Below are positions 2,094 through 16,706 of a stretch of 20,691 nucleotides of DNA, piece by piece. This DNA comes from Planctomycetota bacterium (GTDB lineage: Bacteria; Planctomycetota; GCA-002687715; DRQF01). The notes below the pieces were generated by a model. That model was not told where the DNA came from and did no database searches. It saw only the letters and a list, made by a program, of their open reading frames with translations. The stretch covers positions 1 to 20,691 of the forward strand of contig JALTLO010000056.1 in assembly GCA_027001995.1 (NCBI GenBank), written 5' to 3'. Every line of letters starts with the position of its first letter. The stretch's first letter is position 1. The translations under genes and the position numbers were made by a program.

Positions 2094-3890
2094 ATGAGAT
2101 TCTTGATGTTTTGTCTTCTTTGTCTGCTCGGGTTTAGCGCCATGCTTTCCTCTCAAGCGACGCTCAATGTGCCAAGTGCTACCTATCCGACGATTCAGTT
2201 GGCGATCGATGCGGCCCAAACGGGGGATTTGGTTTTGGTGGCCGCGGGGACTTACGTTGAGAATCTCGATATTCCTCAAGTTGATTTTCGTTTGGTGGGG
2301 GCTGGTGCTGGGAGCTCGATTATTGATGGTAATGCCGCGGGCGCATGTATCAGCTTTCGCGCTCCCGTGTCGAATGCCATGGTGGTTGCTGGTTTCACAC
2401 TGACGAATGGAATCGGTGAGTTGGCTTTTCAAGGGACGACCCCAGTGCCCTCTGGAGGTGGTATTTTTATTCGGAATCCTCAGTTCAGTGTGGGGGTCCC
2501 GATCTCGCCAACCATCAGGAACTGCGAACTGACTTTGAACAACAGCTTTCAAGGTGGGGCTGTCTATATGGAGTTTGGGGGCGACGCTCGATTCAGAAAT
2601 TGTCATTTCCGTGACAACGTCGGTGGCGACAATGATGCGATTTTCGCGAGATTTGGCGGGTCAGTGACTCTTGAAGATTGTGTGGTGGAAAATCATCTTT
2701 CGTCTGTGCACGCGACAATTCGCCTTGATACTTGTCGCGGGAGTTTTGTGAGGTGCCAATTCGAAAACAATGTTACCAATACTGCGAGTGTCCTTTACTC
2801 CAGCAATGCCCCGGGGCCGTCGTTTGGACCGTATATAGAGTTGCGGCATTGCCGATTCATGGGGAATGGCACTTCGACTGGGTTCGGTTCCGCGATGATC
2901 TATGCTGAGGCTACTACGGCCACAGTCATCGACAACTGCCTTTTTGCGGGGAATTTTGGATTTGGGGTGACCCTTATATTTCCAACGACCCTGGCTACAC
3001 CCAGCGGGCTTTCAATTCGAAACTGCACAATCGCAAACAACTCGTTTTCGTCGAATGCGCTCGCGGTGATTCAAGGCGCCCCCACTTTTGAGAACAGTCT
3101 GGTCTATGGCAACTCCATCGTAGGCAGTGGTGTTCCTCTGAATCCCGTTGTGCAGTTTGGTGGTGGATTCAATATCTTCGGCAGTGTCAACTCGATCATC
3201 GAAACCCCAGGCAATGCACCCACCTTAGTCGGCCCAACCTTCATCGACCCATTGAACGGTGACTACCACTTACAACCCGGTTCCGTCGGTGTCGACGGCG
3301 GTACTTGGGCGGGGCTTTCCCCAGCTCCTGGGTTGGCTGATGATGCGGTTGATTTGGATGGGAATCCTCGGGTGCGGGGAAGTGCGGTGGATATGGGGTG
3401 CTACGAAGCTCAGCACATTGCTTATCACCCAGCCGTTGCAGGACGAGTGGGGGAAACTTCTGGTGGGCCCTATGACATTTTGGAAGTGAATGGGTCAAGT
3501 GGTGACATGTTTCGCACGGTATCGGTGCCCTTGGGCACAGCTTCCACTGTGGGCATGACCCAACCCATGAGTGCAGCCGGGCCAAGTAATTTCGCCATCT
3601 TTGGCATGGTGGGGGAGGCGCAGTTTGAGCTGGTGACCACCGTGCCTCTTGGCATTGGTGCCATGGTCTTTCCTCCTTGCCCTCTGCTGCCTTTCATTCC
3701 TGACCTTTTTACTTTGACCAATAACTTTGGCGGCTCTTGCGCCCAAGTCATTGGCTCCACTCTCACTCCTTGGGTTTCTGCACCTTTTCCTCCCGTTGGT
3801 TTTCCTGTGACCCTCACCTTCCAAGGGATCATCGAAGAATCCCCCGGGGTTTACGTGCCCACCAACGCTGTGATTTACAAAGCTGAGTAA
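2094..3890 (+). CDS. Exported right-handed parallel beta-helix (pectin-lyase-like) protein with choice-of-anchor Q-like motif and conserved C-terminal domain
   Basis: Signal peptide. N-terminal TIQLAIDAAQTGDLVLVAAGTYVE cap, repeated 'NC.F..N' and GGGI/GGAV beta-helix rungs, F.DP..GDYHL..GS..VDGG and DLDGNPRVRGSAVDMGCYE motifs. GGGGGA RBS upstream. Confidence 0.88.
   Translation: MRFLMFCLLCLLGFSAMLSSQATLNVPSATYPTIQLAIDAAQTGDLVLVAAGTYVENLDIPQVDFRLVGAGAGSSIIDGNAAGACISFRAPVSNAMVVAGFTLTNGIGELAFQGTTPVPSGGGIFIRNPQFSVGVPISPTIRNCELTLNNSFQGGAVYMEFGGDARFRNCHFRDNVGGDNDAIFARFGGSVTLEDCVVENHLSSVHATIRLDTCRGSFVRCQFENNVTNTASVLYSSNAPGPSFGPYIELRHCRFMGNGTSTGFGSAMIYAEATTATVIDNCLFAGNFGFGVTLIFPTTLATPSGLSIRNCTIANNSFSSNALAVIQGAPTFENSLVYGNSIVGSGVPLNPVVQFGGGFNIFGSVNSIIETPGNAPTLVGPTFIDPLNGDYHLQPGSVGVDGGTWAGLSPAPGLADDAVDLDGNPRVRGSAVDMGCYEAQHIAYHPAVAGRVGETSGGPYDILEVNGSSGDMFRTVSVPLGTASTVGMTQPMSAAGPSNFAIFGMVGEAQFELVTTVPLGIGAMVFPPCPLLPFIPDLFTLTNNFGGSCAQVIGSTLTPWVSAPFPPVGFPVTLTFQGIIEESPGVYVPTNAVIYKAE
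3610..3890 (+). repeat. Direct repeat copy 2 (partner 1..281)
   Basis: 278/281 identical to 1..281; all three differences are synonymous. Confidence 0.97.
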
Positions 3891-5833: not shown

Positions 5834-6256
5834 TTAGGTGATATCGGCGATGACCCGGTCGAGAGATTCGACTAAGTAAAGTGGTAAGGAGTGAAGCGTA
5901 TAGCTGACTTCTTGACGTTTGCCCTTCGAGACAACTGTTGTTTCTACTTGCTGGACGCTGGGTGGGTTGAGGTCGAAGCGTATGGCATCGTTGCTATCGT
6001 GAGTAGCCATGAACTGGTGGAGGGAACGAAGGGCACCCTTCTTGGCAGCTTTGACCTCGATGGGGAAGATTTTCGTGCCCCTGGCAATGACGAAGTCTAC
6101 CTCTGCATTGATTTCATAAAGTTAAAGCCCTTGGGTGCTTGCGCAATTGCGGACGAGTGTGGACTTCCGCACTTGTCGGGCGCCTCGAATTACCAAGGGT
6201 TTTCGCCGAGAAGCTGTGTTCCAAGCGTGTCGTGAGCCTTCTGCGTAGCGCAACAT
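5834..6256 (-). pseudogene. Internally deleted AAA_14/DUF4143-family ATP-binding protein pseudogene
   Basis: Hand translation gives MLRYAEGSRHAWNTASRRKPLVIRGARQVRKSTLVRNCASTQGL*LYEINAEVDFVIARGTKIFPIEVKAAKKGALRSLHQF...LPLYLVESLDRVIADIT*. The family N-terminal Walker A (normally GARQVGKST, here G>R) is fused in frame to the C-terminal EVDFV...IEVK...LPLY segment. There is a premature TAA at 6122-6124. Confidence 0.9.
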
Positions 6257-6265
6257 AGGCGCATG

Positions 6266-6321
6266 GTGGACGAAAAAGGGGTCAATTTCAAAGGGCAAGT
6301 GGACGAAAAAGGGGTCAATTT
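6266..6321 (-). promoter_or_regulatory. Perfect 23-bp tandem direct repeat (33-bp period) directly upstream of the ATPase pseudogene; probable operator/promoter
   Basis: GTGGACGAAAAAGGGGTCAATTT occurs at 6266-6288 and 6299-6321. On the minus strand it overlaps TTGAAA-N17-CACCAT, which ends 6 nt before ATG 6256. The repeat is certain; the function is inferred. Confidence 0.6.
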
Positions 6322-6422
6322 TCCCTCAACCAAAGCTCCCCTTTCGCGGCGAGAGGCTTTGGCCGATACAGGGGCCGGTGTTTATCTTCAACGGAAGGAC
6401 AGGGGCGCTCTTGGGCGCGGGT

Positions 6423-7610
6423 TTAGTCCTCGCGAGCCTCTTTGCCCTTCCCTTTGACGTTGATCCGGAATCGGTCTTCATCTTGATGTTGTAACCACCA
6501 AGCCCGTGCTTTCACTAGCAACTTGGGGTCATCATTCTTCCAATTCTGACCGCCGATGAGACCAAGGGAATGAGCCGCCCGTTTGACCAGAGAAATTGGG
6601 ACAGGAACATCTTCTGGGCTAACCTCTTTCTTGCCTGTTTCCTCGAGGAATTTCCGTCGAAAATCGTGAAATTGGTTGGGACCAGCCTGAATATAGAGGG
6701 CTTCCAGGTGTTCTGCCGCAGACTGGCTGAATGGCCTCGTATCAACAAGGAATTCTCCTAAGGCCCGAACCGCCGCCACTCGCAATCTGCGCCCCAAGGG
6801 GTCCTTTTCGTTCTGACCCGGCTTCGGTGGCATTAGTTGTCGGCGGACGGAGTCCCAATCTCTGGCACCATGTCCGGTCAAGAAACGCCCAGTTAAGAGC
6901 CGACCGTCGTTCCCACAAATACGCCCGGCAAGTTCACGATGTTGCATTTCAGCATAGATGTCGTTGAGGCCCTTCTTTTGGCTTTCGTTGAGATTCTTGA
7001 GCTTCTCAAGTGACCGTGACTTCTTGTAGAGCTCGATGCCTCGCTCGAAGCTCCTTTTGGCAAACTTGAAGGGGTGATTGTGTTTCATGGCCTCGACACA
7101 CTGACACCCAGAAATTCCATATACACGACTGCCAGCCCCATTGATCATGACGAAATTGCTGAAGATCATGCTGGTCCAGGGATTATCTTTGTATTGATTC
7201 TTCCACCACGAAAGGCAGGGGACATCTTGAGGGTAGCCAACATCCGTTGTGTTGACTAAGGCCGGGATAGTCTCTTGGTTGATTTGCTCCGGGAACCCCG
7301 GAACTTCGAGCAAGCGCGAACGCATGGCGTAATGGCCTAGTCAGGCGTAGGGACTGTTGCAGTCACCAAGGAATCGACAAAGAAACACAACAAAAACAGG
7401 TTTGTCGAGCCGCCTCCCCTTGGCCATGGCGGTCTTGAGATCAGTTTCCCATTTTATGCCGTCGTTCTTGGCTGCTTGGGCAGCCGAACAGAAACCTTCC
7501 TGCTTGAGTTGGGCTTCGTTTTCTTGGGCTTTTAGATGTGCCGCAAAGAACATGAACATCGTGACGACGCCCAGGAAGAAGAACCAATTTGTTTGTTGGA
7601 ATTTTCTCAT
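6423..7610 (-). CDS. Candidate exported selenoprotein with a thioredoxin-like (SelN-like) fold, 395 aa, UGA=Sec at codon 90
   Basis: ORFs 7341..7610 and 6423..7325 are in the same frame, joined by TGA(7343-7341) CTA GGC CAT TAC GCC ATG. The read-through sequence is WETDLKTAMAKGRRLDKPVFVVFLCRFLGDCNSPYA-U-LGHYAMRSRLL, so the UGA falls at the thioredoxin active-site position after the KPVFVVF strand. Signal peptide ...HLKA|QE. Confidence 0.75.
7286..7326 (-). other. Candidate bacterial SECIS hairpin(s) downstream of UGA 7343-7341
   Basis: mRNA +15..+30 is CAUGCG-UUCG-CGCUUG (one U-U mismatch, loop at +21). A second, stronger hairpin at +37..+55 is GUUCCGGG-GUU-CCCGGAGC. Folded by eye only. Confidence 0.45.
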
Positions 7611-7727
7611 TAGGGAAGAATCTCCGAAACCAAAAGAACAGGAGGCTGTTCGCTGTCTTGTCGCGCAACGCGAACGAACGTAAGTATCGAGATGATGATA
7701 CCAAAATTTGGTTTCTTGGGGCTCAGC

Positions 7728-9545
7728 TTAGCGACCAAGATTCTCGAGGTATTCGCGAACGTCTTTTCTCTCTAACAACGGGTCCTCGGGTATGGCTAGG
7801 TCCATCATGATGAGGAGCATCTCGTCGCGGGCAGACGGCCCCCAGGATACGAGTTTTGGTGGACGATTGGGGTTGAGAGGGTTTTCCGCTGAATTGTCGA
7901 ATGTTCCCGTTAATCGGAGTACACTCCCGGCATGGACGGTTTTCGGTTGGGGAAAGACGTATGGCATCTGCCAATTGAAGTCCCAATCGTTGATACGTAA
8001 GAGTTCGTCTTCCTTGCCATCAGGGTGTTCGACGGAGAATCGAATCTTGCGGCCGAGGAAATGCATGTGGGGGCCCAAGGCCAGAAGCTCCACCGTCAAT
8101 GGTGCGGTTTCTGTGCATTCTGCCACGAATTCGCTGCGCCCAGCGGGGATCGACAGGTCTGCTTTGCGTAGGGCCAAGGTGACGACATGGTGCTTGACCA
8201 CTTCGTTCGCGAAACGCAATCCAATCTTCAAGCGACATTTCGCTGGTTTTCCCCTTTTGGTGAAATGAACTTGAACGACAACATCTGAATGGGCTTTGAT
8301 CGCTTTCGCGTAGCCCGTTGGGAGGGAGTGAGGCAGGGCTCCTAAGGCCCAAGCACCCAGAGTTGCGTCGGGCACAAAACCAGGGTCGCCAAATCGGCGG
8401 TATCCGGGCTTGGGGTCCGCCATGTCCATTTTTCGTGCTGAATCGCTTGTATCGACGAACGCTAACATGTGATGAAAGTTTTCTGCGGGTTCAGGACGAA
8501 ATTCGACGCTCTTGATCAGTCGATTGGTCAGCAAGTTGGATGGCAGCACAAACCAGACGTATTCATCTGGGCCATCTGCGGACAACTCGTATTCCTCTTT
8601 TAGTTGGAGGATGTGGTCCGGGGCACTCTTCCAACCTTTGGGCCAAATGACCTGCGGGGGGGTGTCTTTGGGATCTCCCTTGGGCATTCCGCCATCCACC
8701 CACTCTTTGATTTTTCGTTTCTCGGAATCCAATAGGCGCGCATCCCCGAGGAATCTGTTTCTCGGGCCGGATGCTCGCCATGGGGGCATGGCGCCGGATT
8801 GAGTTTGTTGCACAATGTCTTTGGACATTGTTCTGACCTGCCCGTATGTGATCAAGGAAAAAGGTGCAGGTTCGCCGGGCCGATGACACTTTTGACAATG
8901 ACGTTGGATCAATCCTTGGATATCGCGGTGCCAAGTGATTGATGTGGAAGTAGGTATCTCCGATACCGCTTTCGGGATTAGTCAGCCCCAGGATTCGGTG
9001 TGAACAACTCGTGGTCTCTTCCCATCCAAGAGTGCGGCGATGGCGTTCTGGAGATCGTGGCTCCTGATAGGACGACGTTGTGATTGGCTGGCCCAGCGAT
9101 CGTCAATACGCCCGGAATATTCGATGGCCTGATTTTTGCCAAACAAAAACACTTGACTTGTATTTGTAGCACCTACCGCTTTGACGCTGAGGCGAAGCGG
9201 GTCCTTCAAAATTGTGCAGTCGACTTTGAAATTCTTGGCATGACCCCTGATTGCTTCATCCGATTCGTTGCCCACCATCACCATGATGAACTTAACACCC
9301 CGGTTCTTGAATTTCTCTTGGAGTGAATTCCAAGTTGGCATGTAAGAGTTTGTGATCGGACAAACGGATGTGCAGAACATGAGGACAGTCAGAGTGCTCT
9401 TCGATGACGAAAAAAGAGTGTGGATCTTTCCTTGCGTGTCACAGAGACTCACCGGCGCGATTGACTTTTGGTCCTGGCAAAGAAGGTCGCCAGCCGGTAC
9501 AACGATGCTCAGCAGGACGAAAACTAGGGTATTGAATAGTCTCAT
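7728..9545 (-). CDS. Candidate exported selenoprotein: redoxin (AhpC/TSA-like) + CxxCH cytochrome c + type II copper monooxygenase-like fusion, 605 aa, UGA=Sec at codon 188
   Basis: ORFs 8982..9545 and 7728..8912 are in frame: HTESWG-TGA(8984-8982)-LIPKAVSEIPTSTSITWHRDIQGLIQRHCQKCH. The UGA occupies the Cys of the GCxI motif that follows Y.GRIDD...L..AI.ALL.G in this redoxin family. Other motifs are CTSVCP, CQKCH, and the Cu ligands FHHML, VHF, PHMH and DEM. Confidence 0.85.
8948..8971 (-). other. Candidate bacterial SECIS hairpin downstream of UGA 8984-8982
   Basis: mRNA +15..+29 is GGUAUC-GGA-GAUACC, a perfect 6-bp stem with a G-initiated loop at +21. It is extended by AAG/CUU pairs below a small internal loop. 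Confidence 0.65.
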
Positions 9546-9652: not shown

Positions 9653-11386
9653 CTATTCTTGTCGACAGAACTCAACGACTTCGGGTTTAATTGTCATGGG
9701 GCGTTCCAAGCCAGAGAGGTCCATGCCGGATTCGACGAGGTGGGGGAGGTGCCCACCGTTACAAACCAATGTGCGGTTATTGTTGACTGAGAGCATGTTC
9801 TTCAGTTGCTGGACTTCATCTGGTTGCATGCCGGTTGAGACCACGTATTCGCAATGATCGTTATCCTGACTCAGGATAGTGACGCCGTAGTGTTCTGGAT
9901 TCTTAAATACTTCCGTATCTGGGTGAAGTAGGAAGTCGCCGACGAATGCCGTCAGGCCAAAGTCCGCTCTATGGTCAAAGAGAAATTTGGCTGTGTTCAT
10001 GACGTCTTGCCGATCTTCCGTGGGGAAGCCAATAAACCAAAGTAGCTCGGCGGAGACACCGGCCTTTCGAAGGTTCTTAAGCATCTGGGGGAGATCGTTG
10101 AGGTCGTAGCCTTTCTCCATAAGGTTGAGTACGTCTTGATTTGCGGACTCAAAGCCCATAAGGAGGCTCTTGCATCCACCTTCACCTAAGAGTTGGCAAT
10201 ACTCGGGGTTCAAGAGAGCTTTTTCAAATTTCATGCCGCCACCCCAATGAACCTCAAGATTCTCGTCTTTGACGATCTGCGCCAAATTCTTGGCACCATT
10301 GGGCGGAATACTCGAGTCTTGCATGTAGATATAGCGTGCCCCATACCGTTCAGCTAAGTCTTTGACGTCGGCGCGAATCTTGTCCGAGCTCGATTGGCGG
10401 TAGTTTTCACGCCAACCGATGCTGCAGAAAGTGCACTTGCCCCAATAACAACCTCGAGAAATCATCAGTGGATAGACTGGGCCTGGGGTCAAATAAAGAT
10501 CCATGTCTGCCGTGTCGAAGTCTGGAATCGGCAGGTCATCCATCGGCTCGAGGTAGGCCGTTTCTGTGGTGCGAATGAGCTCCTTGTTCGCATTTAAGTA
10601 GATGAAATTGCGGGCATCTTCGAGTTTTGCATGGCCTTCCAAGGCCGCGACGAGCTCGACGATGGCTGTTTCACCATCGCCGAAACAAATTGTATCGGTG
10701 AACTCGAAGATCCAATTGTTAGTCAACCATTTGTCGAGATAGAGCGAAATTAGAGGGCCACCCATGCTTATGTGTAGGCTGGGCTTTCTTGCTCTCAAGA
10801 GGCGCGCCAATCGGACCGCTTCAACCGCTTGTTCTGGGAATGCCACGGAGATCGCGATCATTTCTGGGGCATCTTGCAAGACCGAGTCCAAGAAGACTTC
10901 TTCGTAAAGGTCTCTCACAGGGGACCATGGGTCCGCGACTTGTTGTGCGATCATATCAGCACCAAAATTTTCTCGATGCGGCGAGATGACTGGATCCAGC
11001 TGGTAATAGAAGCCCAATACATCAACCACTGTCCAAAACGCTTTCTTGAACAAAGGCTGGTCGAAGCACCGGACTCGGTCGCGCAAAATGTGTTTACAAT
11101 TCTCCCCATCCAAGACTTTCTCTTCCAATTGGGCAAGCATCTCCGTCAAACGATCTGCTTCGCCGCCTTGTCCTTGGTGGCGCAGTTGTTCGATTAATTG
11201 TCGAGCGCCATGAAGGATCATCTCTGATCTTTGACGATTCAAAAATAGATCTGCCGCCATGGCGTTGAGATCATAGATTCGAGGTTCGTGGCCAGCGTTC
11301 TTGAGCGCCGCTGCCAGCAGGGGGAGCGAGTGATACATGGGGTTGGGAAGGCACAACGAATTGGGAAATACGACAGAGACTCTCAT
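9653..11386 (-). CDS. Cobalamin-binding radical SAM protein (class B methyltransferase-like)
   Basis: B12-domain features (SLPLLAAALKNAGH, ISMGGP, GDGE), SRGCYWGKCTFC, GFESANQDVLNLMEKG, FIGFPTE. Start placed at ATG 11386 (MRVSVVFPN) rather than 11446. Confidence 0.92.
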   Translation of the reverse strand: MRVSVVFPNSLCLPNPMYHSLPLLAAALKNAGHEPRIYDLNAMAADLFLNRQRSEMILHGARQLIEQLRHQGQGGEADRLTEMLAQLEEKVLDGENCKHILRDRVRCFDQPLFKKAFWTVVDVLGFYYQLDPVISPHRENFGADMIAQQVADPWSPVRDLYEEVFLDSVLQDAPEMIAISVAFPEQAVEAVRLARLLRARKPSLHISMGGPLISLYLDKWLTNNWIFEFTDTICFGDGETAIVELVAALEGHAKLEDARNFIYLNANKELIRTTETAYLEPMDDLPIPDFDTADMDLYLTPGPVYPLMISRGCYWGKCTFCSIGWRENYRQSSSDKIRADVKDLAERYGARYIYMQDSSIPPNGAKNLAQIVKDENLEVHWGGGMKFEKALLNPEYCQLLGEGGCKSLLMGFESANQDVLNLMEKGYDLNDLPQMLKNLRKAGVSAELLWFIGFPTEDRQDVMNTAKFLFDHRADFGLTAFVGDFLLHPDTEVFKNPEHYGVTILSQDNDHCEYVVSTGMQPDEVQQLKNMLSVNNNRTLVCNGGHLPHLVESGMDLSGLERPMTIKPEVVEFCRQE

Positions 11387-11463
11387 AGTTGGCTCAACAT
11401 CGATCAAGGAAAAGAAGGTGCGACCTAACAGATTCGCATCGCCCACCCTAGTAGAGTAGACTA

Positions 11464-13462: not shown

Positions 13463-15064
13463 GTGCAGGCGGAGTCTTTCTCAATTGGAGCCGTAGTTCT
13501 CTTGAATATCACGTTAGCTCCCCGCGGAGGACTAAGTCACAGCGGAGGGAAGGTCGTCTTGTTCTTCCCCAAGTTTCGGGCACCGCAGCATCCCGTCTGG
13601 ATGCCACTCGAAATCATGACGCTTGGTGTCTCCTTGTGTGACGCTGGCTTCGAAGTCCAACTGATCGACGAGAGAACCGAGCCTGACGCCGTAGGGATTG
13701 CTAATGTTGCTGTTCAGGGGGCCTTGTTCATCGGAATCTCAGCTCGTCCTGGCGACCAGGTTGATCGATCCTTGGAACTTTTCGACTTGCTCAAGGAACA
13801 TCACCCTGGCACTCCGATTGTCTGGGGTGGGTGGTTTCCTTCGACATTTCCGGACGCCTGTTTGAAGATTGAGAACCTTGATTTTGTAGTTCAAGGAGGA
13901 GCGGATACATCCTTAGTTGAACTTGCTTTGCGTATCCGTGACGCCGATGGAGATGTGCGAGGGCTCAAGGGCGTGAATGCTCGTGATGGGAAGAATATTG
14001 TACGCAATCCACGACGGCCTCTTGAGAACCTTGCCAAGACACCGAGAATCCCCTGGGCTTTGTTTCCCGTTCACGAATATCTCACAGCTGATGGTTGTAT
14101 CAATCTCTACACCAGTCGCGGGTGCCCAGGGCGTTGTCGGTTCTGTGGTGTCCCCAGTGTCTTTCCCGGAGTTTGGACTGGCTACGAAGCCGAGAGAGTT
14201 GTCGATGATATTGAGACGCTTCATGGAATGGGGGGACGAATTTTTAAGGTTCTCGATACGGATATGTTTCCCGACCACGAACGTGTACGGGAGATCTGCC
14301 GTCTCCTCATCCAACGCGACTTGAATATTCGTTGGATTGCAGACGTCCGAATAAAGGACGTGATTCAGTTTGACTCGGAAATGTGGGACTTGTTGCGCCG
14401 TAGTGGTTGCGCCGAGTTGGAAACTGGAGGTGAATCTGGAGCCGAAGACCTACTTGACGCGATGCAAAAGGAATGCACTGCTGGAGAAATCTACGATGGC
14501 GTGAAAGTGATTGTCGACCACGGGATTGCAGCTCGAGTTAACTTCATCTTGGGATTGCCGAATGAAACCAAGAATCTGCTCAATGAAACCCTGCGCCTTG
14601 TTCATCGGATCGGACTTCTGGGACCCAAAGCCAAATTCCAATTCTATCGTTTCACCCCCTCTCCAGCGACGCGGTTTGGTTCAGAAACTTGGCACTCCAA
14701 AAATTCAAGGCACGATGGAAGCGTGCCTGTGGATGTTCGAGCTCTCAATGGCGTGCCCATCAACCATGATAAAGCTCCTATGTTTTGGTTGAAGAAATCG
14801 GACGAGGCAAGAGTTAAGCGTTTCTACTATTTGCACCTGCCATTGGCCTACTACTTCCAAGATGACGGGCGAAAAGGGATCAAGCGTTGGGGATTGAGGT
14901 TGCTCATGAAATTGGCGAGGGCGCGGATTCGTTTTGGATTTTCATCGCTTCCCTTCGAGAGCTTTCTTTGTGATGCCTTTGATCGTCCGCTCCCGAGATC
15001 GAGAGAGCATGAGTGGCTTGAACTCAATGAGGCAGCCAGCGCCGAGATGCCAATTGTGGAATAG
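13463..15064 (+). CDS. Cobalamin-binding radical SAM protein
   Basis: PLEIMTLG...GFEVQLIDER, IVWGGWFPS, TSRGCPGRCRFC, GGESG, NFILGLPNET. Start codon uncertain (GTG 13463 or TTG 13502). Confidence 0.92.
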   Translation: MQAESFSIGAVVLLNITLAPRGGLSHSGGKVVLFFPKFRAPQHPVWMPLEIMTLGVSLCDAGFEVQLIDERTEPDAVGIANVAVQGALFIGISARPGDQVDRSLELFDLLKEHHPGTPIVWGGWFPSTFPDACLKIENLDFVVQGGADTSLVELALRIRDADGDVRGLKGVNARDGKNIVRNPRRPLENLAKTPRIPWALFPVHEYLTADGCINLYTSRGCPGRCRFCGVPSVFPGVWTGYEAERVVDDIETLHGMGGRIFKVLDTDMFPDHERVREICRLLIQRDLNIRWIADVRIKDVIQFDSEMWDLLRRSGCAELETGGESGAEDLLDAMQKECTAGEIYDGVKVIVDHGIAARVNFILGLPNETKNLLNETLRLVHRIGLLGPKAKFQFYRFTPSPATRFGSETWHSKNSRHDGSVPVDVRALNGVPINHDKAPMFWLKKSDEARVKRFYYLHLPLAYYFQDDGRKGIKRWGLRLLMKLARARIRFGFSSLPFESFLCDAFDRPLPRSREHEWLELNEAASAEMPIVE

Positions 15065-15149: not shown

Positions 15150-16706
15150 CTAACTCCGTATCTCGTTGTTGAATGGATAGTAGGTCCCATGATGAGGGAT
15201 TCCGCCTGCCTCACGCAGTAACTTCGCAATTTTTGACCGAACAACTTCGCTGACCGGAAGGGTCTGGAGATCGTATCCTGTTTCTGTGACGCAGAAATCT
15301 ATGTATTCGGCGATGGAGGTCTTGGAATGGCAATCGTCGGTTAAGTCGATCATTCTGGTCAGGCGATAGTCATCGAAATGAAACTTGAGAGACGTGTCCT
15401 GGATCATCTTTCGGATTTCAGCTGGGCTGACTTCGGTGAACCAATCCTGGCTGTCCTGGGGTACGGTGGAGTAGCCAAATTCCGCATCCATCTTACCGTT
15501 CGTTAGATCCGTAACTTGATTGCGAATCTCAGTGCCTTCGAATGGCTGGACATGAAACATGAGCGCCATGTGGGCCGCCGACGACAGTAGGTCGTCGATT
15601 GTCAGTTGCATTTCCTTCCGTGTCTCGGTGGGGAATCCAAACATAGTAAAGGTCGATGTAAAAATGTTGTACTTATCAGAAAGTTCGATCGCCTGTCGAA
15701 GACGATCCAGCTTGTTGTGCTTCTTGACAAGTTTCTGAATGCGTGGGGAGGCACTCTCAATGGCGAGGCTCCAGTGGTAGGTCCCTGCTTCTTTGGCTGC
15801 TGCGATAAACTCTTCTGTCATGAGGTCACCACGCAGACCGTTGGGGAAAGCGAAGGACAATTTCCAATTGCGTTTCACGACTCCATCAAAAAAATCTATG
15901 GCTCTTTTTCGATCGGCGTTGAAGATGTCGTCGACGATTTGAAACTCAGTGACGCCATGGCTGGCCATGAGTCCTTCCATTTCAGTATAGACGTTCTCAA
16001 TGCTTCTTTTTCTCACTGTCTTGCCGAAATGGTCGTGACAGTATGTGCACTGGAAATAACATCCCCGCGTTGTGAAAAGCGATGTTGCTTTTCCTTTGGG
16101 ACGAAGGCCAGTCATGGTCTTAAACTCTTGATAGGCGTCAAGGTCGATTCCCGTGTAGTCTGGGAATTCGATCGTATCCAAGTCTGAGATGAGTGGGCGT
16201 GAGCCTGACGTCCTGCGTCCCTTGCCATCCCACCACTGAACTCCAGTAACATTGTGCCCATTTCCACCGGCCAAGATATCGGCGACCAGTTCAACGAAGG
16301 TGATTTCCCCTTCCAAAGGCACGATAAGATCGATGTTGGAGTCCTTGAATAGGCTAAGGGAGAGAGTTGCTGCGTGTGGTCCCCCCGCAACAACGATGCA
16401 GCTCGGGTTAGCTGCCTTAGCGATTTCGGCTACCATGGGATAAACATCGCTTTGCGACGAGAACCCTCGAATGCCAATGATGTCTGGTTGGACGTCCGCG
16501 AGGAATGACTCCGCCACTGGGCGCAGGAATGTTTGTTGTGGTATCAAGCCCATGTCGCCCACGATGATCTCAACACGATCACCAAATTGGGCGCGAAGGG
16601 CGGCGGAGATGTATTGAATCCCCAGAGGGACCATGACGATTTCCCAGTTGTCTTTCTCGGAAGCGAGATTCACTAGGGCAATCTTTAGAGTTCTTAGTGT
16701 CGTCAC
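15150..16706 (-). CDS. Cobalamin-binding radical SAM protein
   Basis: PLGIQYISAAL, VVAGGPHAA, EGE, TTRGCYFQCTYC, DDIFN, FPNGLRGD, MFGFPTET. GTG start preceded by GAGG. Confidence 0.93.
   Translation of the reverse strand: MTTLRTLKIALVNLASEKDNWEIVMVPLGIQYISAALRAQFGDRVEIIVGDMGLIPQQTFLRPVAESFLADVQPDIIGIRGFSSQSDVYPMVAEIAKAANPSCIVVAGGPHAATLSLSLFKDSNIDLIVPLEGEITFVELVADILAGGNGHNVTGVQWWDGKGRRTSGSRPLISDLDTIEFPDYTGIDLDAYQEFKTMTGLRPKGKATSLFTTRGCYFQCTYCHDHFGKTVRKRSIENVYTEMEGLMASHGVTEFQIVDDIFNADRKRAIDFFDGVVKRNWKLSFAFPNGLRGDLMTEEFIAAAKEAGTYHWSLAIESASPRIQKLVKKHNKLDRLRQAIELSDKYNIFTSTFTMFGFPTETRKEMQLTIDDLLSSAAHMALMFHVQPFEGTEIRNQVTDLTNGKMDAEFGYSTVPQDSQDWFTEVSPAEIRKMIQDTSLKFHFDDYRLTRMIDLTDDCHSKTSIAEYIDFCVTETGYDLQTLPVSEVVRSKIAKLLREAGGIPHHGTYYPFNNEIRS

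Follow-up and report, generated by a model that had tools for sequence, protein, structure and literature searches.

We analysed a 20,691-nucleotide stretch of DNA from a planctomycete bacterium (Planctomycetota; contig JALTLO010000056.1 of assembly GCA_027001995.1), referred to here as the window. Between positions 6423 and 9545 its minus strand carries four co-directional open reading frames (ORFs) under translation table 11, of 187 and 394 amino acids (aa) and of 89 and 300 aa. When a single TGA is read as selenocysteine (Sec, or U), each pair becomes one continuous frame: gene 1 (7728-9545, minus strand, 605 aa), with its sole in-frame TGA at 8984-8982 (U188), and gene 2 (6423-7610, minus strand, 395 aa), with its sole in-frame TGA at 7343-7341 (U90). 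The original prediction, made from the sequence alone, had proposed two neighbouring exported selenoproteins that become fragmented by annotation, and the frames bear this out. Both remain open on either side of the TGA, and the entries for the two genes in protein databases are fragments of 187, 366 and 300 aa. Both N-termini look by eye like signal peptides, as had been predicted, and both proteins are presumably exported. We consider it highly probable that each is a single gene whose UGA is decoded as Sec by SelB and tRNA-Sec.

TGA is otherwise an ordinary stop codon in this organism, as was also claimed originally. It terminates 1133 of the 2713 long ORFs of the genome, and two near-identical gene ends in the window, at 281 and 3890, use TGA in one case and TAA in the other; genome-wide reassignment of UGA is therefore ruled out. 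Both in-frame TGA codons were seen in contigs, not in raw reads. The full stretch is matched letter for letter by one contig (depth 11.9) of the public run X1, a run that may be the source sample itself. Another study supplied a divergent contig over 7279-7385 that retains the gene 2 TGA; seven listed positions differ, five of them synonymous. A hexamer coding model did not separate TGA junctions from TAA and TAG junctions (67, 54 and 49), and self-homology junction tests were noisy.

The genome (92% complete) encodes the Sec machinery. selA, selD and tRNA-Sec(UCA) adjoin on contig C148 and selB lies on contig C17, all above cut-offs, which supplies the selA/selB/selC/selD set expected of a bacterium that makes selenoproteins. 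selD carries its own in-frame TGA, in a U-x-x-K motif. A scan of ORF junctions across the genome gave 141 TGA candidates, of which 140 were listed, and by eye we chose at least 14 other clear UGA redox-motif sites (selD included) plus five unclear ones. We take these 14 to belong to thioredoxin-like proteins, Prx, MsrA, AhpD and formate dehydrogenase. The organism is selenoprotein-rich, its homologues' taxa also mark it as a planctomycete, and Sec use is the rule in our sample of the phylum, where selA scored above cut-off in 90 of 121 genomes (74%).

In hhalign and hmmsearch alignments the gene 2 TGA (7341-7343, minus strand) matches the leading Cys of the CxxC site of thioredoxins, giving the motif U-x-x-H. 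A profile search of 401 genomes of the phylum found matches in 35 (47 matches, with 30 loci returned among them). These were pooled with loci from a separate gene 2 search, and after removal of three ordinary CxxC proteins, one partial self-match and loci covering the C-terminal part only, 26 distinct loci remained; the U90 codon is TGA in 24 (the window included), TGC in two, and TAA or TAG in none. Among 1.84 billion protein representatives there were likewise 47 matches to gene 2: 35 start just after the UGA, one stops exactly before it, three are C-terminal only and eight cross the UGA position. All eight of these full-length proteins have Cys in the U90 column. A search of the genome contigs collection with the single gene 2 protein gave no match.

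The identity of this codon also follows the machinery. selA or selB was above cut-off in all 21 genomes with a gene 2 TGA, and neither gene was found in the two genomes with a Cys form (94% and 91% complete). One pair of genomes from the same genus divides in this way, G233 having TGA together with selA and G291 having Cys with neither selA nor selB found. We read this association as support and not as proof, because the background frequency of selA is high (90/121) and related genomes are not independent. Across three relatives, the five codons between the gene 2 UGA and the next Met show six synonymous changes versus one non-synonymous change, as expected if they are translated. Both features by which a bacterial selenoprotein is recognised, a UGA that aligns with Cys and its conservation in Sec-using genomes, are found in gene 2, and its TGA almost certainly encodes Sec. 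As side observations on this family, locus L085 (G326:C120:1-2195) holds two tandem genes of a short form, each with a Cys-UGA dyad, and the congeneric genome G001 has at least three UGA-bearing gene 2 paralogues (contigs C548, C58, C245 and C334).

The AlphaFold2 model of gene 2 (53 alignment rows; predicted local distance difference test score, pLDDT, 90.7) has a thioredoxin-like domain at about residues 48-200 (7011-7469, minus strand), which runs across the UGA and includes a G-C-Q-C motif (C169, C171), followed by an all-helical C-terminal part. Residue 90 opens the helix after the first core strand. In VIA-align comparisons DsbH-like thioredoxins ranked at the top: 3ira (Z 10.9, root-mean-square deviation 3.4, 139 residues aligned), 3f9u (Z 10.5) and 2ju5 (Z 8.7). 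Foldseek returned nothing for this model at E ≤0.001. These structures and the families Thioredox_DsbH (PF03190) and Thioredoxin_7 (PF13899) share the fold of the gene 2 domain, and PF13899 matches 12 of 20 gene 2 family members weakly. Profile alignments pair U90 with the first Cys of their CxxC motif, His93 with the second Cys and Ser151 with the cis-Pro. Gene 2 departs from them in four ways: its motif is U-x-x-H in place of CxxC, nine inserted residues precede the site, the aligned position lacks the cis-Pro, and a helical C-terminal part of about 190 residues is added. The window protein matched no NCBIfam or Pfam family at cut-off, its relatives gave weak partial matches only, and a search of the ESM Atlas with two natural Cys homologues found only unnamed clusters at ≥0.9.

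The window gene belongs to a long form of the family, in which the helical C-terminal part, the G-C-Q residues and C232 are conserved; many of the shorter forms have a Cys-Sec dyad. We propose that gene 2 is an exported thiol/selenol oxidoreductase of monothiol type. The U90 selenolate, at the start of the thioredoxin active-site helix, would be the attacking residue; its partner would be either an envelope protein or a peroxide, with which it would form, or in which it would reduce, a mixed Se-S bond. Because the U-x-x-H motif lacks a second Cys, the adduct would be resolved by a distal Cys (candidates C169, C171 and C232) or with the help of an external reductant. Binding of the partner is the probable role of the helical C-terminal part.

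Gene 1 (pLDDT 90.5) predicts a fusion of three redox parts. The original prediction saw it only as a thioredoxin-fold protein, missing the heme and copper monooxygenase portions. A redoxin domain spans residues 32-191 (8973-9452, minus strand; AhpC/TSA PF00578 and Redoxin PF08534, both above cut-off), with Cys62 encoded at 9360-9362 and kept in 50/50 aligned homologues. The structure 2cvb matches this domain with E 1.4e-9, and U188 (8982-8984) falls on its Gly-Cys. Downstream lies a CxxCH heme c motif (8883-8897; C217, C220, H221), invariant in alignment A7, for which Met253 is the likely axial ligand. Further on lies a PHM/DBH-like domain (7788-8618). Foldseek matched the model to peptidylglycine monooxygenase (PHM, E 7e-16) and dopamine beta-hydroxylase (DBH, E 7e-15), and PF03712 scored 21.9 bits, just below its cut-off of 23. 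Copper type II enzymes have a two-domain fold with a three-His and a His-His-Met copper site, and the predicted structure of gene 1 has both: H358, H359, H427, H493, H495 and M576 all fall in the set of columns conserved at 90%.

This architecture suggests an exported, self-feeding copper monooxygenase. In this scheme a Cys62/Sec188 pair of the redoxin domain would accept electrons and hand them on to the c-type heme, from which they would reach the two PHM-type coppers that activate O2; this route would replace ascorbate. U188, in the conserved C-terminal Gly-Cys of the redoxin domain, is the probable resolving position of that pair.

Homologues support a Cys-equivalent residue at U188. Of the 105 non-self matches, 52 aligned across this position and 48 of these have Cys, which is the pattern expected of a bacterial selenoprotein. 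A 140-residue query across U188 matched 135 of the 401 genomes (201 matches, of which 150 were listed and 51 were not). Among the 149 non-self matches listed, 148 have no stop and one, in genome G061, has TGA. The G061 copy is 30% identical to gene 1, carries its TGA at the same Gly-Cys codon, is open to its end and is followed by a hairpin of -9.4 kcal/mol; its genome has selA and selB. In trees of 77 and 24 rows the window and G061 copies lie far apart. They joined in 0% of 200 bootstrap trees, and a single clade for the two was rejected (approximately unbiased test, p-AU 1.7e-5). Since the tree rejects their grouping, the two Sec copies probably have separate origins. Gene 1 itself keeps 46 of 49 conserved columns (the median is 48), and U is one of the three differences. 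We judge that its TGA very probably encodes Sec. The substitution would then probably be a rare, recent switch from Cys to Sec that has happened at least twice. For both genes, as the original prediction had asked of homologues, U aligns with Cys or with UGA.

Several observations count against reading these codons as Sec, most of them in gene 1. G061 is the single other TGA copy among the 149 non-self matches listed, is not a sister sequence, and its selA lends weak support since 74% of the phylum has that gene. Further TGA copies of gene 1 were looked for and none was found in a class search, a metagenome scan (28 loci), a DNA pattern scan of genome contigs (at least 119 loci; GGC before TGA only), a phylum pattern search that returned mostly chance matches (30 loci examined) or the relatives of G061; a fragment search gave gene 1 itself only. 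The branch leading to the window gene is long (1.5-1.6), which weakens its exact placement, its hexamer use is atypical (2nd-9th percentile), and its TGA is covered by run X1 alone, possibly the source sample. In gene 2, the catalytic cis-Pro of CxxC relatives is replaced. The downstream hairpins, described below, belong with these adverse points. Candidate interruptions were also set aside during the searches: all 13 open in-frame matches from the DNA pattern scan turned out either to be genuine stops that follow an intact Gly-Cys or to lie in unrelated DNA, and several apparent one-TGA homologues were ordinary stops after Cys or too weak to align.

Such points would be accommodated if gene 2 were a selenoprotein and gene 1 a recent pseudogene or an assembly error, TGC or TGT having become TGA on a conserved Cys by chance. 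Besides the 148 uninterrupted homologues, the long branch, the weak hairpin and the single covering run, this explanation draws on the Cys paralogues of gene 1 that the genome retains on contigs C45 and C136, and on other nonsense-interrupted genes in the genome, mostly mobile ones. It must nevertheless account for a second, unrelated copy with TGA at the same codon, for heme and copper ligands that are all intact, for a depth-11.9 contig that agrees with the assembly, and for the change itself, a transversion and only one of the 191 single-step ways of creating a stop. We therefore consider a decayed or misassembled gene 1 unlikely, and continue to favour Sec at U188.

The original prediction noted that bacterial Sec codons have a hairpin just downstream, and hairpins do exist after both UGAs, weak in gene 1 and, for the first one, degenerate in this copy of gene 2. 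The model in the available text of PMC13188914 places a G-led loop 16-37 nt after the UGA on a stem of 4-16 bp, with an energy of -7.5 kcal/mol or lower; we scored candidates for a bacterial Sec insertion sequence (bSECIS) with a custom script following that model, not with bSECISearch. The gene 1 candidate (8953-8967, minus strand) has a 6-bp stem and a GGA loop 20 nt after the UGA. Its geometry fits, and at -6.3 kcal/mol it is weak and misses the published limit. Among controls, 37 of 300 TGA stops and 52 of 300 sampled Cys codons equalled it (12-17% of controls). When the scoring was repeated, hairpins as good were present at 7 of 14 presumed Sec sites and at 67 of 400 Cys codons.

The first gene 2 hairpin (7309-7328, minus strand; 8-bp stem, loop 20 nt after the UGA) is conserved in the long-form family, with 76.4% of cells paired over nine long-form loci versus 24-46% when the pairing was slid. 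Three of its eight pairs show changes on both sides, in a structure that was drawn from the same sequences. The window copy is degenerate and weaker than the hairpin of gene 1, and RNAalifold gave no stable consensus insertion sequence, with near-zero energies for both gene 2 subgroups. A second gene 2 hairpin (7286-7304, minus strand), with a GUU loop 44 nt after the UGA, is stronger and common to family-level relatives, and is a possible substitute; it lies outside the published distance range and is confounded by the protein sequence. The downstream hairpins of both genes are suggestive only.

The two genes are direct neighbours on one strand with 117 nt between them, and the products of both look like exported redox proteins. 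The original prediction proposed a selenium-dependent extracytoplasmic redox module. In such a module the gene 2 protein would reduce the redoxin domain of gene 1. The genomic context does not support such a unit, and we regard it as improbable. No gene 1 homologue was found beside other gene 2 loci (33 loci including duplicates, flanks of about 1.5 kb), and no gene 2 homologue beside the G061 Sec copy within its 12-kb locus. Two congeneric genomes (83% and 89% complete) have gene 2 in other contexts and gene 1 paralogues of only about 30% identity, and the neighbours differ even within the genus. A terminator-like hairpin also lies between the genes (7636-7651), though such sites occur at chance level (9 found, 7.2 expected), as did the results of our promoter and terminator scans generally. 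The pairing looks local.

Least tenable is the idea that the UGAs are true stops between short N-terminal genes and coupled downstream genes, or are decoded as Cys or Trp. In its favour, gene 1 does have natural split forms, with redoxin and monooxygenase as two genes, and a Met lies six codons after the gene 2 UGA. But the split forms stop 4-12 codons past an intact Gly-Cys and never at it. In gene 2 only TGA occurs as the stop; it interrupts the thioredoxin fold at the active site, and its presence follows that of selA/selB. TGA is also a normal stop in this genome, and together these points make the idea very hard to sustain.

Decoding of both UGAs as Sec, which we prefer, places the two proteins beside known selenoprotein families from which each differs. 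Like gene 2, the families Trx7/PDZ (NF041199, motif CxxU), VPGUxxT (NF041383) and TsoB (NF045694) have UGA at a thioredoxin active site. Listed Sec thioredoxin families gave only weak matches to the N-terminal strand and helix (best E 1.4e-4), and gene 2 differs from them in its Sec motif and lacks any PDZ, rhodanese or DsbD part. Against NF041199 it scored 18.7 bits (residues 52-86), compared with a cut-off of 300, and has no PDZ; against NF041383 (cut-off 275 bits) and NF045694 (805 bits) the window protein had no match and its relatives matched weakly.

A further comparison concerns eukaryotic selenoprotein N (SELENON). According to the available text of PMC12839072, its thioredoxin-like motif contains the site SCUG, where Arg466 follows Sec462 at a distance of four residues. 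In our gene 2 family alignment (A9), a Cys precedes the site in 12 of 20 rows and an Arg stands at +4 in 9 of 20; the window gene (A-U-L-G-H-Y) has neither of these features described there. No SELENON record was returned by a PDB search with the gene 2 family profile or by the other sequence and structure searches. Kinship with SELENON, compared by motif description, is a lead only.

Gene 1 shares its fold with PHM (1phm, 1sdw, 8dsl) and DBH (4zel), with a best E of 7e-16. The PHM ligand pattern consists of a His-His...His and a His-x-His...Met set, partly echoed by the titles of mutants among the PHM structures matched, and both sets are conserved in gene 1. Gene 1 differs in being bacterial and 16-18% identical, in having redoxin and heme c domains of its own, and in carrying a Sec. 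Table 1 of PMC13188914, in its available form, includes Sec redoxins that share PF00578 and PF08534 with gene 1: Prx (TxxU), Prx-like (UxxC, UxxU), Redoxin family (UxxC) and AhpC/TSA (UxxS). These carry Sec in an N-terminal active-site motif, whereas gene 1, a three-domain oxygenase, keeps Cys62 and bears its Sec 126 residues further on, in place of the C-terminal Gly-Cys.

Both families appear to be missing from current selenoprotein catalogues. Among the 119 families of that Table 1 (2026), as available, we recognised no U-x-x-H DsbH-like family and no C-terminal Gly-Sec redoxin or copper monooxygenase, and the new families in the available part of PMC12013277 match neither gene. Our literature searches found no papers; BSepDB or Haft and Tolstoy (2025) could list these families. 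UGA recoding is well known, and these families, apparently uncatalogued and stored as fragments, are for that reason hidden by annotation. As one combined reading, gene 1 would be the first selenoprotein among PHM/DBH-type copper monooxygenases, with a self-contained Sec/Cys-heme-copper wire for electrons, its Sec having been acquired on at least two separate occasions at a resolving position that no listed redoxin uses. Gene 2 would belong to one branch of a large planctomycete family with the thioredoxin fold, a family that is almost Sec-only and may be the bacterial sister of SELENON. We offer this combination tentatively, at slightly below even confidence.

The two families also provide natural comparisons. 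The gene 2 family is nearly always Sec, with Cys where the machinery was not found, and the G233/G291 pair is a clean test case of reversion from Sec to Cys. Cys and Sec versions of gene 1, one of each clade's type, occur even within this genome, and because these natural versions exist, the contribution of selenium at the resolving position is directly testable. If the SELENON lead is true, soluble bacterial relatives would offer a handle on a human myopathy protein.

Other features of the genome and window were recorded in passing. Further in-frame TGA codons with downstream hairpins lie in families that we did not recognise, at C105:4114(-), C49:27140(+), C177:10040(-), C155:3624(-) and 3861(-), and C88:69091(-). 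The two C155 sites, in the same frame and 237 nt apart, look like tandem metal-binding domains with two Sec. Paired nearby UGA redox sites occur at C27:3790/4141(+), C105:27174/28593(-) and C68:54773/55187(-), and at C27 the two sites seem to belong to a fusion of a VPGUxxC thioredoxin with a Sec MsrA, which would put two Sec in one frame. Within the window, positions 1-281 and 3610-3890 are near-identical 281-nt copies of the end of a beta-helix protein gene, with three differences, one of them in the stop codon, and represent a recent duplication. Three B12-binding radical S-adenosylmethionine genes are present, at 9653-11446(-), 13463-15064(+) and 15150-16706(-), none of which scores at the cut-off of any NCBIfam family; gene 1 directly follows the first of them and shares its strand. 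On the other side of the gene pair, 5994-6330(-) is a stop-riddled remnant with a short direct repeat at about 6270-6325, presumably the tail of an AAA/DUF4143-type ATPase. An intact-looking ATPase of this kind lies upstream of the gene 2 orthologue at locus L010.

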